From NCBI GenBank assembly GCA_020356005.1, contig CP070629.1, positions 2,992,765 through 3,044,488 of the forward strand: a stretch of DNA of 51,724 bases. Direction: 5' to 3'. Positions within the stretch are counted from its first letter, which is position 1. The number at the start of each line of letters is the position of its first letter. The notes beneath the pieces are model-generated. The model searched no databases. It saw nothing but the letters and a program-made list of their open reading frames with translations, and was not told where the DNA came from. Positions 14,993 to 19,486 of the stretch are shown here, in pieces. The translations under genes were made by a program, and so were the position numbers. This DNA is from Thermoplasmata archaeon. Lineage in GTDB: Archaea > Thermoplasmatota > Penumbrarchaeia > JAEHCK01 > GCA-020356005.

Positions 14993-15349
14993 ATGAAAAA
15001 GGATGAAAAGATGGTTGATGAAACCAATATGGTCTTGGAGGTTGAAGAAAGCCCGATAAGTGCAAAAGGTGGTGTGGCCAGAGTGAATGAAGATACACTG
15101 AGTTTACTGAATATGGAAGAAGGTAAGAGTGCTGTAGTCAAATCAAAGACCAAATCAGTCATGCTTACCATCTATGCCGATTCACTCATTGAAAAAAATA
15201 AAATAAAAATTCGCAAACCAGATTTAAAAAAGTTAGCTGTTAGCAAAGGAGACGAGGTATCAATTACAACATCTAAACCTTTGACAGATGTAATAAAATC
15301 TAAATTTGGGATGGAAAGCAAAAAGGAGGAAGAAAAGGCAAGCAAATAA
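14993..15349 (+). CDS. Stand-alone Cdc48/VAT N-domain-like barrel protein (A1)
   Basis: The segment LEVEESPISAKGGVARVNEDTLSLLNMEEGKSAVVKS...LTIYADSLIEKNKIKIRKPDLKKLAVSKGDEVSI follows the pattern of the double-psi barrel of Cdc48/VAT N-domains (L.V.E....G.ARV....L..L....G..V.V; IR.....R..L.V..GD.V.V). It is a clear paralog of 18011..18277. The start is ambiguous (14993, 15011 or 15029). Confidence 0.6.
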   Translation: MKKDEKMVDETNMVLEVEESPISAKGGVARVNEDTLSLLNMEEGKSAVVKSKTKSVMLTIYADSLIEKNKIKIRKPDLKKLAVSKGDEVSITTSKPLTDVIKSKFGMESKKEEEKASK

Positions 15350-15397
15350 AAAAAAATACTTCGAATAGATTAGAAGCTCCATAGGGGGTGGTTAAAC

Positions 15398-15688
15398 ATG
15401 AATGTAGGTATTACAGAGCGAATAAAAAGTAAATTTAGGGAACAGTCGTTAACAGTAGGTAGAAGAATCGACCTATATTTAACGAAAAATATGCCGGATT
15501 TGATACTTAAATATGATCTGGCCACAAAAAAAGATCTGATCGAAATCGATCGACAGATAGAGGGCTATGAAAGTACATTGGACAATCTGGACCGATGGAG
15601 AGATGACACAAGGGACAGGATGAAAAAAGCTGCAGATCGTGTGGGCAGGCTTGAGATGAAATATGGGGTCAGCAAGGGGGGTAAATAA
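15398..15688 (+). CDS. Small coiled-coil protein B1 (paralog family B)
   Basis: SD AGGGGGTGG. It shares the motif block RRIDLYLTKNMPDLILKYDLATKKDLIEIDRQIEG with B2 and B3, and the rest has heptad-like charged/hydrophobic periodicity. Confidence 0.65.
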   Translation: MNVGITERIKSKFREQSLTVGRRIDLYLTKNMPDLILKYDLATKKDLIEIDRQIEGYESTLDNLDRWRDDTRDRMKKAADRVGRLEMKYGVSKGGK

Positions 15689-16023
15689 TGAGTGCAGCTG
15701 GTGATGTTGCAAGCACAATATTTTTCGTCGTTGTTGTTCTCTTACTTATCGGTGCACTGATATGGCTGTTCTTATACGTATGGCGAAAGCTACGAGAACG
15801 AGGTGTTCGTCATGTTGAACTTTATTTTGACGAACATTTCAGAGATATAGTAAAAGAGTGGGATTTGGTAACAACGCCAAGTATGAAAGATTGGACAAAA
15901 GACATGTCCAAGCGGCTTGATTACGTGGGCAAAGATATCGATAAGATGATGGATTTCAAAAAATCCTTCGATACCAGGCTGAACAAACTGGAATCCGAAC
16001 TGGATAGTCTGGAGGTCTCGTAG
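15688..16023 (+). CDS. Small TM + coiled-coil protein B2 (paralog family B)
   Basis: The ATG overlaps the B1 stop (TAATG). N-terminal TM helix IFFVVVVLLLIGALIWLFLYVW. The motif block reads RHVELYFDEHFRDIVKEWDLVTTPSMKDW. Confidence 0.65.
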   Translation: MSAAGDVASTIFFVVVVLLLIGALIWLFLYVWRKLRERGVRHVELYFDEHFRDIVKEWDLVTTPSMKDWTKDMSKRLDYVGKDIDKMMDFKKSFDTRLNKLESELDSLEVS

Positions 16024-16034
16024 GAGAGACAGGG

Positions 16035-16379
16035 GTGATGCAAATGGAAGAGGAAATGGAAGCAGAAAGACCTTCGTTTTTTGCACGAATCAAGGCTTAC
16101 TTATCCGGAGCGGAGAAGGAGAAAGATGAGGCAACATACCAGCGCAAACTTCTCGATGGTAGAATCGAGAAATATTTAGATCGCCATGCGAACGAATACA
16201 TCGAGGAATTTGGATTGGTAACCAGCGTTGATCTTCAGGTATACGAAGAACGTTGTGAGGATTTGACCATGAGATTAGAGAGTTTACAGGAATTTGCGAA
16301 AACTTCGGATGCTGAATTATCAGATCTTGAGCGAAGGGTGACGGCCATAAAGTCTGCAAGGAAGAGAAAACATAAGTAA
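16035..16379 (+). CDS. Small coiled-coil protein B3 (paralog family B)
   Basis: The motif block reads GRIEKYLDRHANEYIEEFGLVTSVDLQVYEERCEDL, followed by the coiled coil RLESLQEFAKTSDAELSDLERRV. Confidence 0.65.
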   Translation: MMQMEEEMEAERPSFFARIKAYLSGAEKEKDEATYQRKLLDGRIEKYLDRHANEYIEEFGLVTSVDLQVYEERCEDLTMRLESLQEFAKTSDAELSDLERRVTAIKSARKRKHK

Positions 16380-16433
16380 GTAAATAATAGATGAAAACTC
16401 AAAGGGTAATGTAAAAAATAAGGGGATGCCAAT

Positions 16434-17427: not shown

Positions 17428-17781
17428 ATGAAAACAACAGTTGATAACAATGAAGTTTATAGAGAACTAGCAGCAATTTTTCACAGCTATGTTCTGGCAA
17501 ACTGGAATAATCCAACAAAGCGTCTGAAACAACTGCAATCGTACATTCAGCGTAAAAAACATATTACTTTGGAATTAGACCAATTGAACCACTATGTCAA
17601 TCGCATGAAAATCAATTTGAAGCAGCCGAAGATTATGGCAAAAACAAAAGCTTATCTGTTTACAAAAGAAAAAAGGGTCAGAAAATACCAATTCGGTTCA
17701 GATTTTTGCCCGAATTGTAAAACGTTTAAGAACTACGATAAGGAATGCTTCAACTGCGGTTATCATGAGATGACGTATTAA
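17428..17781 (+). CDS. Helical protein with a C-terminal zinc ribbon (E)
   Basis: SD AGAGGA, and a C-terminal CPNC-x9-CFNC. Confidence 0.6.
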   Translation: MKTTVDNNEVYRELAAIFHSYVLANWNNPTKRLKQLQSYIQRKKHITLELDQLNHYVNRMKINLKQPKIMAKTKAYLFTKEKRVRKYQFGSDFCPNCKTFKNYDKECFNCGYHEMTY

Positions 17782-17931
17782 ATTACTTCTTAATTCTAAA
17801 TTTCTTAGTAATTCAGGTTACATTTTATAACTGCGAGTTTGTGCAGAGACTGTTAGTAAATTCTCTCATAAAGCGATACAAACTTATGTATAAATTTCAA
17901 TTCAATTATAATATGAAATGGCAGGTCCCAA

Positions 17932-17946
17932 CAGTTATATAAAGGG
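17932..17946 (+). promoter_or_regulatory. Candidate TATA box for the A2-AAA transcription unit
   Basis: cagttatataaaggg lies about 65 nt upstream of TTG 18011, in the only long gap (229 nt) of the cluster. SD GGGGGAG is at 17998-18004. Confidence 0.3.
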
Positions 17947-18010
17947 AAACCAAAAAGATTTAATTCAATGACATATTTAACGTAGACTAATAAGCTCGGG
18001 GGAGAACCTC

Positions 18011-18277
18011 TTGGTAACCAAACTTCAGGTGAAAGAGAGCCCTATCGCAAAAAGTGGGGTTTCCAGGATACATATCAGTGTTCTAGAGAATCTTGGAATT
18101 GAAGTTGGTAATACCATCGTGGTATCCTCCGACAATGGTTCTATTTTGGTACATGTTTACGCAGACACCTTGATTGAGGAAAATAAAATAAGTTTACGAC
18201 CTGCCGATCGGAAAAAACTGGGTGTAAGGGGTGGTTATGAGGTAGCAATAGCACCTCATAAGGGCGGTAAAAAGTAA
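18011..18277 (+). CDS. Stand-alone Cdc48/VAT N-domain-like barrel protein (A2)
   Basis: The segment LQVKESPIAKSGVSRIHISVLENLGIEVGNTIVVSS...LVHVYADTLIEENKISLRPADRKKLGVRGGYEVAI aligns along its whole length with A1 (14993..15349). It starts at TTG after SD GGGGGAG. Confidence 0.6.
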   Translation: MVTKLQVKESPIAKSGVSRIHISVLENLGIEVGNTIVVSSDNGSILVHVYADTLIEENKISLRPADRKKLGVRGGYEVAIAPHKGGKK

Positions 18278-18304
18278 TTAAGGTAGAATTGAATTAAATT
18301 TAAA

Positions 18305-19486
18305 TTGAAACATGGTGTGGGTATGGGCAGGAGTAGCGACAATAAGATACTTCTAATTGATTTAATGTTCATCTGCGTTTTAATTTTAATTCTTATTTAT
18401 TATTTTTTAACATCAGATTATCTAACGATTATCATTATTGGAATCGTTGTATTATCAATTCTTATCATTGTACTAACAGTAATTTACTTTACAGAACAGC
18501 AACATAAAAAGCTCATGGTAGATATGGCTCATATTCTGTATGATAAGGCTGTGGCTCTGGAGAATGCACAAAAAGAACCTGCTGGTGAGTTTGGTAATAA
18601 TAACCCGTTGATTCCCATAGAGAAGCCCGAGATATCATTCTCCAATCTTGGCGGTATGAAAGCTGTGAAAGAGGATATTAAAAAAGCTATTGTTTATCCC
18701 TTCGATCATCCTAACCTGTATGCCATGTACGGCAAAAAAATTGGAGAGGGAATTTTGCTTTACGGCCCACCGGGCTGCGGTAAAACATACATCGCAAGAG
18801 CCGCGGCCGGGGAGTGCGGTGCATCGTTTCTTAATTTGAAGATCAGTGATATCTTGAGTAAATGGGTTGGCGAAAGTGAAAAAAATATACGCGCTGCTTT
18901 CGATGCTGCGACAAAGCATGCACCAACTATATTGTTCTTCGATGAGATCGATGCAATAGGCAGTAAACGGGGAGAAAGTCTTGAGGGTCACACAAAACGG
19001 CTCGTGAATGAACTGTTGATACAGCTGGACGGCCTGGAAGGACCAAAAGAAAAGGTGTTGACCCTTGCTGCAACGAACGCACCGTGGTCGGTAGACCCGG
19101 CGCTGCGCAGACCTGGGAGATTCAGCAAGCTGATCTATATCCCTCCACCGGATTTTAATGCACGAAAGGAGATATTCAAGTTACAAACCAAAAACCGCCC
19201 CATTGCAGATAATATTGATTTCGATGACCTCGCAAAAAGAACGGAATGGTATAGTGCCGCTGATATCAATCAAATCTGTGAGGAGGCGGCAGACATTCCG
19301 TTGCGCGAAGCTATCAAGAATCAAAAGACGAGGAAGATAACCAACGAAGATTTTCAGAAGGTATTAAAGCGCCGCAAATCATCATTAATATCATGGGCAA
19401 AATTAGCTAAGCAGCAGATACAGATGAGTAAAGAACAGGAGGTTTTTGAGGAGCTGTCAAAGGAAATCGAACAGATTCTGGAATGA
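18305..19486 (+). CDS. Membrane-anchored single-module classic-clade AAA+ ATPase
   Basis: Two N-terminal TM helices (LIDLMFICVLILILIYYFL, IIIIGIVVLSILIIVLTVIYF). Walker A is GPPGCGKT, Walker B is ILFFDEID, and the second region of homology is ATNAPWSVDPALRRPGRF. The segment SKWVGESEKNIRAAF is also present. An alternative start is ATG 18323. Confidence 0.9.
   Translation: MKHGVGMGRSSDNKILLIDLMFICVLILILIYYFLTSDYLTIIIIGIVVLSILIIVLTVIYFTEQQHKKLMVDMAHILYDKAVALENAQKEPAGEFGNNNPLIPIEKPEISFSNLGGMKAVKEDIKKAIVYPFDHPNLYAMYGKKIGEGILLYGPPGCGKTYIARAAAGECGASFLNLKISDILSKWVGESEKNIRAAFDAATKHAPTILFFDEIDAIGSKRGESLEGHTKRLVNELLIQLDGLEGPKEKVLTLAATNAPWSVDPALRRPGRFSKLIYIPPPDFNARKEIFKLQTKNRPIADNIDFDDLAKRTEWYSAADINQICEEAADIPLREAIKNQKTRKITNEDFQKVLKRRKSSLISWAKLAKQQIQMSKEQEVFEELSKEIEQILE

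Follow-up and report, generated by a model that had tools for sequence, protein, structure and literature searches.

A 51,724-nucleotide (nt) stretch of a 3.58-Mb contig from a Thermoplasmata archaeon metagenome-assembled genome (MAG), hereafter the window, contains nine plus-strand genes at 14993–19486, referred to here as A1, B1, B2, B3, C, D, E, A2 and F, which an original prediction had read as a single machine centered on the AAA ATPase F. Comparison of this locus with those of relatives indicates that the architecture is very probably that of a conserved seven-gene module (A1, B1-B3, C, D and E) and a separable pair, A2-F. The module recurs in about 25 loci, and A2-F was found beside it only in the clade of the window (L002, L009, L030). 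The best overall reading, given about an even chance, is that the module is a membrane scaffold and A2-F a lineage-specific remodeling ATPase.

The nine open reading frames (ORFs) were all present at the coordinates first reported, separated as claimed by 48 nt, a 1-nt overlap, 11, 54, 78, 16, 229 and 27 nt, and the domain assignments made for them were upheld by Pfam, profile, hhalign and topology checks. The corresponding GenBank entries are UCH88695.1 to UCH88703.1 (JSV49_10655 onwards), in which C is labeled 'PRC-barrel domain-containing protein', F 'AAA family ATPase' and the other seven genes 'hypothetical'.

Distribution, gene order and surroundings of the module

Related loci were gathered by scanning metagenomes with E, by scanning GTDB species genomes and by contig look-ups, and gene arrangements were determined by tblastn with all families; pattern-based scans of this kind undercount loci. 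Recurrence of the gene set in relatives, a test that the original prediction had set itself, was confirmed, with about 25 loci representing at least six Thermoplasmatota clades. The usual order of genes in the module was A-B1-B2-D-B3-E-C or a near variant thereof (L008-L031), with tight packing and common start/stop overlaps of 4–8 nt. Since proteins from distant clades were 25–50% identical to those of the window, the synteny of the module does not stem from recent descent, and the repeated co-occurrence of these families, in about 25 independent loci and commonly with the stop codon of one gene overlapping the start codon of the next, indicates that their clustering is not due to chance. Thus, the proposed co-directional cluster of small membrane-associated proteins is real, conserved and undescribed, and the conserved unit is a six- to seven-gene operon with a neighborhood that reaches upstream of A1.

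The module is a Thermoplasmatota-specific operon. Just 103 clusters (90% identity) of the E family were noted among 5.8 billion proteins, and the named sources of these clusters were all Thermoplasmata or Thermoplasmatota. Similarly, the scan of 185,579 GTDB species genomes, which relied on pattern matching and so undercounts, identified E in 7 loci, all from Thermoplasmata MAGs.

Gene order varied between clades. In the clade of the window (L002, L008, L009, L030 and L031), the arrangement was A1-B1-B2-B3-C-D-E-[amino-acid permease]-A2-F, and the entire A1-to-F series was present on one contig in L030. Loci L010, L012, L013 and L025 carried A and a minus-strand gene for a Prok-RING_2 (RING) protein, followed by B1-B2-D-B3-E-C, while a minus-strand RING gene and a plus-strand Lrp/AsnC (Lrp) gene preceded A-B1-B2-D-B3-E-C in L015-L019, L026 and L027, and the order RING-A-B1-B2-D-B3-E-C was noted in L011 and L014. 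In L020/L024 and L028, B1-B2-D-B3-E-C was followed by genes for a 69-aa transmembrane (TM) protein, A and a Cys-rich 114-aa protein, and in L022 (Ca. Saliniplasma, Halarchaeoplasmatales) B1-B2-D-B3-E-C occurred with a gene for a 72-aa TM protein. Orthologues of A were encoded by the first gene of the operon in three clades (X, Y and Z) and by a gene after C in another (clade V). The 69–72-aa proteins encoded 3' of C in two of the clades (L020, 10874–11083; L022, 6636–6854) contain a single TM helix and end in a K-rich tail, and the Cys-rich protein encoded after the barrel (L020, 11565–11909) may be a stand-in for the RING protein.

Only D and E were detected among module genes in two reduced loci (L023, 5567–6539; L029, 721–1612), and E of the former (200 aa) is extended at its N-terminus by a segment containing two TM helices. 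These features suggest that the module has D and E as its minimal core and that E acts at the membrane.

Upstream of A1 in the window, a gene for a Prok-RING_2 protein with a K-rich tail (13303–13746, minus strand; Pfam PF14445, E 1.8e-13) is followed on the plus strand by genes for two paralogous Lrp/AsnC regulators (13794–14279 and 14322–14780; Pfam HTH_24 / AsnC_trans_reg) that are 40% identical. Homologues of the RING gene, which is transcribed divergently from the module, were noted beside the module in seven loci of four clades (L010, L012, L014, L017, L025, L026 and L030), and that of L012 matched PF14445 with an E value of 3.5e-11. Membership in the Prok-RING_2 family is evident from these matches together with the pattern CxxC..CxxC..CxxxC..CxxC, the eight Cys of which were kept in six aligned sequences. 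In L030, the RING gene is displaced to the far side of F. In L017, L026 and L027 an Lrp/AsnC gene separates the RING gene from that of barrel A, and an Lrp/AsnC gene recurs in two clades. Given the two Lrp/AsnC genes at 13794–14780, the earlier statement that the cluster has no nucleic-acid-binding domain is valid between 14993 and 19486 and fails just upstream.

The sporadic distribution of E, in 7 of 185,579 species by the undercounting scan described above, would also be expected of a defense or stress island or of mobile-element cargo, as opposed to a housekeeping structure. In L012, the module is flanked by genes for an SMC/AAA_23-type ATPase, a transposase fragment and a DNA methylase (1500–3236, 6918–7250 and 11977–13134), the GC content of the window over 14001–18000 is 0.35–0.36 as opposed to 0.40–0.47 across most of the window (about 41% overall), and F matched models of the IetA defense ATPase (E 2.6e-41). 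The island-like flanks of L012 were, however, unmatched in other loci, and the match of F to IetA, like that to TRIP13, reflects generic similarity between classic AAA proteins, the IetS protease being absent. Furthermore, the small proteins had no PADLOC or PHROGs match at E < 1e-3, no relative was found among 2.9 million viral contigs, neither an integrase nor flanking repeats were observed and the module has housekeeping neighbors at other loci, among which are purine and arginine genes (L020) and genes for FtsZ and ribosomal L1/L10 (L022). The low GC of the cluster, over which GC skew is strongly positive (14001–18000), could stem from its K/E-rich small proteins instead of foreign origin. 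A defense or mobile-element role is therefore considered highly unlikely.

Proteins of the module

The first protein of the module, A1 (14993–15349), is a stand-alone double-psi beta-barrel with a K/E-rich tail. Matches of A1 and A2 to Pfam CDC48_N (E 1e-7 and 2e-4; 32.3 and 22.0 bits) were below the gathering score of 35.1. However, a profile of the barrel family matched the Cdc48 double-psi barrel 7dg9_A (E 1.3e-6, positions 7–87) as well as many other p97/Cdc48 N domains in the PDB. These findings place the A1/A2 family, over the whole barrel of about 85 residues, among Cdc48/VAT N-domain double-psi beta-barrels. A genome scan with a three-sequence alignment of the barrel, the patterns of which were too strict, found no relatives.

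Proteins B1 (15398–15688), B2 (15688–16023) and B3 (16035–16379) are paralogues, as indicated by hhalign probabilities of 93–97% (E 4e-7 to 4e-11). B1 and B3 are soluble while B2 has one N-terminal TM helix with basic residues right after it. The fold of the family, consisting of short helices, a turn and a long helix with a phasin-like leucine zipper, is seen in an AlphaFold2 (AF2) model of B3 (pLDDT 86) as helices 39–50 and 52–59 followed by a 50-residue helix, 64–113. The B1-B3 profile identified 144 representatives among 1.84 billion proteins, most of 73–130 aa. Since 28 of 52 remote B relatives matched Pfam Phasin (PF05597; best E 1.8e-6), the B domain is distantly related to the leucine-zipper region of phasins. 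In agreement with this, both PF05597 proteins (PhaF/PhaI type) and B contain a short helix, a turn and a leucine-zipper helix. In contrast with phasins, the match of B is limited to the C-terminal zipper, B is triplicated with one copy TM-anchored, and no polyhydroxyalkanoate (PHA) synthase gene is nearby. The identification of B proteins as phasins was rejected, the best score among window proteins, that of B3, being 17.1 bits (E 0.006) against a cut-off of 28.8, with no PHA gene detected at the examined loci. Elsewhere, a stand-alone 73-aa B-like protein (P0260) is one of the small unannotated proteins (126, 102, 73, 124 and 156 aa) encoded in a different co-directional operon (L032, 2544–5529), which follows a gene whose product weakly matched Apolipoprotein and TrkA_C; the B domain is thus reused in at least one other uncharacterized cluster.

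Protein C (16434–16913) belongs to the PRC-barrel superfamily (PF05239), which it matched in two stretches (E 1.2e-10; 41.6 bits, cut-off 21.2), indicating a tandem barrel, and its profile matched the PDB PRC-barrel chains 8qzo_A and 8onw_H. D (16992–17411) consists of one TM helix, basic residues and a cytoplasmic domain, probably helical, which is the best conserved in the module (LKNAS..L.D.ER..I.SI..D..ILSR......E.E.R..RLE.G). E (17428–17781) combines a three-helix domain (AF2, pLDDT 90.6) with a C4 zinc ribbon (CxxC...CxxC) in the conserved motif FGSDFCPxC..FKNYEKECPYC.

No Pfam or NCBIfam family match was obtained for B1-B3, D or E, so that these five, of seven proteins in the module, represent families missing from both collections. 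Profile searches of the PDB returned generic coiled coils alone for B and nothing for D, and Foldseek, run with the confident models of E and B3, found nothing in the PDB at E <= 0.001.

The A2-F pair and its relation to the module

Between E and A2 lies an AT-rich spacer of 229 nt (17782–18010) with a TATA-like box, TTATATAAAGG, at about 17934–17945, and from inspection of the sequence, this spacer likely contains a promoter from which A2-F would be transcribed as a unit of its own. A2 (18011–18277) is a second double-psi barrel that lacks the tail of A1. F (18305–19486), for which GenBank gives an ATG start at 18323 (387 aa) as opposed to the TTG at 18305 first chosen, consists of a TM hairpin, basic residues after it and an AAA domain with AAA_lid_3 (E 2e-43). 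Its Walker A, Walker B, pore-loop (KWVGE) and Arg-finger motifs are all intact.

The best 120 homologues of F comprised three groups, namely proteins with a TM hairpin as in F, proteins with an MIT-like N-terminus and Cdc48 proteins. A precomputed annotation lists Pfam MIT for one MIT-type protein (P0032), and the match was weak in another (P0035). In a neighbor-joining tree, TM-type and MIT-type proteins formed one clade separate from Cdc48 D2, a result to be read with caution in that the tree is distance-based, has no support values and did not include crenarchaeal and eukaryotic Vps4. On alignment of N-termini, the TM hairpin occupied the place of MIT helices 1–2 while the third helix was kept (ILYDKAVALE versus TFYGKAVSL); F had no Pfam MIT match, and this helix was the only one aligned with MIT. 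The MIT domain of Vps4 and CdvC binds MIM motifs of ESCRT-III. At one locus, L004, a single-AAA ATPase of the MIT type, which shares about 60% identity with F, is encoded after a 194-aa protein with a weak but full-length Snf7 match. This locus (7687–11206) is a Thermoplasmata 'minimal ESCRT' locus that encodes, in addition to these two proteins, a 554-aa protein with RxxGYxVxRLE repeats, which is assumed to be a member of arCOG07400. A Thermoplasmata-specific Vps4 clade with minimal ESCRT has been described (Makarova et al., 2024, PMC11188069). Thus, by sequence comparison, F appears to be a lineage of Thermoplasmata Vps4-like ATPases in which a TM hairpin has replaced MIT helices 1–2, and the earlier view that the cluster cannot be mapped to Cdv/ESCRT was too strong for F, the apparent sister group of which is the MIT-type ATPases found beside an ESCRT-III-like gene.

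In contrast with the tree, F scored 214 bits (E 2e-63) against the NCBIfam CdvC model, with a cut-off of 650, and higher, 267 bits, against the CDC48 model, with a cut-off of 802 and with alignment to the D2 part only; the solved structure closest to its AAA domain is also Cdc48 D2. F was rejected as a Cdc48/VAT ATPase because it has a single AAA domain only. It was likewise rejected as a proteasome-activating AAA protein (PAN, Cdc48/AMA gatekeepers) because the C-terminal HbYX motif, which such ATPases use for docking to the 20S proteasome (Forouzan et al., 2012, PMC3493965), is absent. F ends in ...EQILE, and none of its TM-type relatives ends in Hb-Y/F-X.

The conserved RING gene, the Cdc48 N type of the barrels and the motifs of F, which are those of a competent translocase, might together suggest RING-dependent tagging and degradation, with the RING protein as an E3-like factor, the barrels as recognition modules and F feeding a protease. 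Genes for ubiquitin-like, E1, E2 or JAB proteins were, however, undetected at all examined loci, no conserved protease gene was nearby and F lacks the means of docking on 20S noted above. Such a pathway is most improbable.

The relation of A2-F to the module was examined from gene order and barrel identities. A2 immediately precedes F in the window, L002, L009 and L030 and was found only where F adjoins the module. A1 and A2 of the window are 48% identical, and identity of A1 was 44–46% to A2 proteins as opposed to 26–31% to barrels of other clades, which indicates that A2 arose by lineage-specific duplication of the barrel belonging to the module. In addition, the pairing outlived two rearrangements, the insertion of a permease gene and the shift of the RING gene in L030. 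As far as can be judged from sequence, A2-F does not appear to be a random neighbor of the module.

Adjacency and common direction of all nine genes in the window, occurrence of the same set on one contig in L030 and paralogy of A1 and A2 would likewise fit one integrated nine-gene machine in which F is an obligate core subunit with both barrels and the coiled-coil proteins. Synteny largely refutes this interpretation, which is considered very unlikely. Thus, no classic AAA gene was present in the recovered flanks (up to 10 kb) of eight module loci (L012, L020/L024, L022 and L025-L028), F orthologues in L003 (63% identity) and L006 (57%) were without the other eight genes nearby, including that of the barrel, an amino-acid permease gene in L002, L009 and L030 is inserted between E and A2 exactly at the site of the 229-nt gap, and the gap itself is promoter-like. 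Most of these observations weigh against the reading of a scaffold with a dedicated remodeling ATPase, since F is dispensable to the module in most lineages, as does the occurrence, in assembly CAZSUE01, of the D-E pair (L029) and a TM-type ATPase (L003) on separate contigs and the absence of the barrel itself from the Saliniplasma locus (L022). The other eight genes were also looked for, and not found, around the more distant F relative of L004.

Some of these results would be expected if A2-F were unrelated to the module and instead extracted membrane proteins or carried out quality control in a general way, in the manner of Msp1/ATAD1 or of the FtsH ATPase part. In keeping with such a role, the pair has an apparent transcription unit of its own from which the module is separated by a permease gene in relatives, TM-type ATPases are more widespread than the module, with neighbors that include ThiC, AdoMet decarboxylase and xanthine-dehydrogenase-like genes, and an uncharacterized 'membrane-bound AAA' (MBA) group is already recognized in archaea (Forouzan et al., 2012, PMC3493965). 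F resembles this group in being a membrane-anchored archaeal classic-AAA protein. An unrelated role fails to explain the origin of A2 from the module's barrel, the restriction of A2 to loci where F adjoins the module and the persistence of the adjacency through permease insertion and RING relocation, and is considered unlikely, if not negligibly so. That A2-F acts on the module, as the scaffold reading has it, is possible but somewhat doubtful.

Several features of the surrounding DNA were also noted. Directly 3' of F in the window, a gene (19693–22683, plus strand) encodes a fusion of an amino-acid permease with a Usp domain. This protein carries a tail of about 250 aa with abundant acidic residues and PV repeats, and differs from the permease encoded between E and A2 in relatives (L002, 864–3125; L009; L030, 3130–5280), to which it is about 24% identical. 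An MscS-like mechanosensitive-channel gene lies a few kb from the module in three clades (window, 22667–24064; L013, 11–607; L027, 5553–6059); identity between these is 23–28%, and their proximity to the module may or may not be meaningful. Elsewhere in the window, a 136-aa ORF with a single TBP repeat (8263–8673, plus strand; Pfam TBP, E 1.5e-23) adjoins an LSM gene (7942–8241) and may encode a half-size TBP paralogue, and a second ORF (39638–40159, minus strand) has a TBP-like translation. No tRNA or Rfam RNA was found within the window.

Known systems, proposed model and significance

Comparison with the Thermoplasmata minimal ESCRT (Vps4, ESCRT-III and an arCOG07400 barrel; PMC11188069) revealed both likenesses and differences. 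Both systems are restricted to Thermoplasmata, and the likeness of F to the Vps4 component extends to about 60% identity, grouping apart from Cdc48 D2 in the distance tree and a retained equivalent of MIT helix 3. Unlike that component, F has a TM hairpin for MIT helices 1–2, the cluster has no ESCRT-III-like gene, and A and C lack similarity to the 554-aa protein of L004 (hhalign probability < 1%). A haloarchaeal Vps4-like ATPase, that of the Halo_adaptin system (PMC11188069), lacks MIT, has a VAT-N-type barrel instead and is accompanied by a PspA-like neighbor. The combination of a single AAA domain without MIT and a Cdc48/VAT-N-type double-psi barrel makes this ATPase the closest precedent for the barrel-plus-ATPase pair, with the differences that the A2 barrel is encoded by a separate gene, F is membrane-anchored and no PspA/ESCRT-III-like protein was detected here. 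Compared with Cdc48/VAT/p97, A1 and A2 match the N-terminal double-psi barrel and the AAA domain of F resembles D2, whereas the A barrels stand alone without the beta-clam N-subdomain and F is a single-AAA, TM-anchored protein without HbYX.

PRC barrels are needed for division in haloarchaea and are also part of CdvA. With CdpB1/CdpB2, which function in haloarchaeal division with SepF, FtsZ2 and CdpA, C shares the character of a small PRC-barrel protein, a likeness known at the level of the PRC domain alone; C differs in having two barrels in one polypeptide. SepF was undetected at all examined loci, and a CdpA homologue was absent from the cluster. With the CdvABC system, the locus shares co-encoded PRC-barrel and coiled-coil proteins and, in one clade, a Vps4-related ATPase. 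Unlike CdvA, C is a tandem PRC barrel not fused to a coiled coil, the coiled-coil proteins being products of separate genes, and no CdvB/ESCRT-III, E3B peptide or winged-helix partner was found here, anchoring being by TM helices. CdvA carries an ESCRT-III-binding C-terminal peptide.

In light of these resemblances, the cluster might be a strongly diverged Cdv/ESCRT division system in which C and the coiled coils represent a split CdvA, B and D take the role of ESCRT-III and F is the Vps4. The fusion of PRC barrel to coiled coil in CdvA, the apparent sister relationship of F to Thermoplasmata Vps4-like ATPases, the sub-cut-off match of F to the CdvC model and the reported absence of FtsZ, SepF or PRC-barrel division genes from some Thermoplasmata (PMC11188069) are consistent with this possibility. 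However, no Pfam Snf7 match at E < 1 was obtained for any of the nine proteins, and hhalign comparison of B and D profiles with the ESCRT-III-like protein of L004 gave no detectable similarity (probability < 1%), a result that also counts against the scaffold reading. F, moreover, has no MIT, the winged-helix or E3B element is missing, most module loci lack F and an FtsZ gene lies near the module in L022. A diverged Cdv/ESCRT system is accordingly judged decidedly improbable.

No literature or family model was found for the module. Since comparisons with ESCRT/Cdv, Cdc48, proteasome-activating ATPases, phasin and known defense systems all failed to place it, the module is rated as a new kind of gene system made from known domains. 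Its known memberships (PRC barrel, double-psi barrel, Prok-RING_2, Lrp, classic AAA) are at the domain level only, and the A2-F pair alone is a variation on the Vps4/Cdc48 theme.

In the model favored here, that of a membrane scaffold with a lineage-specific remodeling ATPase, the products of a first unit (13303–17781), comprising A1-B1-B2-B3-C-D-E together with the RING and Lrp/AsnC genes, would form a complex at the membrane, on its cytoplasmic side. The TM helices of B2, D and F are each followed by basic residues, which place the soluble domains in the cytoplasm, and anchoring would be provided by the single-pass proteins D and B2. A heteromeric coiled coil may be formed by B1, B2 and B3 by way of their phasin-like leucine-zipper helices, and E, with its helical domain and zinc ribbon, may pair with D, as suggested by the two reduced loci in which these were the only module genes detected. 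C, A1 and the RING protein would each bind other proteins and could in this way recruit partners or control assembly. Contact between barrel A and C is a guess based on the report that PRC-barrel genes are often adjacent to Cdc48 genes in archaea (bioRxiv 10.1101/2023.03.28.534520). A single-domain PRC-barrel gene lies directly beside a full-length Cdc48 gene in L002 (14062–14726), a genome that also carries the module. Formation by the module of a membrane-anchored, multi-subunit complex is considered fairly probable.

The second unit (18011–19486), A2-F, would provide a membrane-anchored, substrate-threading AAA ATPase, with A2 acting in trans as the substrate- or adaptor-binding N-domain of F. 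A2 might then direct F to whatever A1 binds, leading to ATP-driven remodeling, disassembly or extraction of the scaffold.

A role of the module in division or membrane remodeling is a tentative lead, drawn solely from analogy to CdvA, CdpB1/B2 and Vps4 and from one FtsZ gene in L022, and the finding of FtsZ near the module only this once, at a distance of 6 kb, counts against it. On the same tentative footing, the locus may encode a Thermoplasmatota-specific apparatus, not recognized before, for remodeling, division or envelope organization, with a TM-anchored heteromeric coiled-coil scaffold that includes PRC, barrel and RING components and, in the lineage of the window, its own disassembly motor of Vps4 descent, which would have traded its MIT domain for a membrane anchor and would employ the duplicated barrel as a detachable N-domain.

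Many Thermoplasmata have no cell wall, and their reduced ESCRT set is without an assigned function (PMC11188069); for the study of division and membrane shaping in this group, the locus offers a concrete, testable set of genes. If its function were unrelated to division, the module would still be a well-delimited conserved operon of an uncultured lineage, a useful but modest finding. For the evolution of AAA+ proteins, F would represent an ATPase of the Vps4 lineage in which the MIT recognition domain has turned into a membrane anchor and the presumed recognition domain is supplied by a separate gene.

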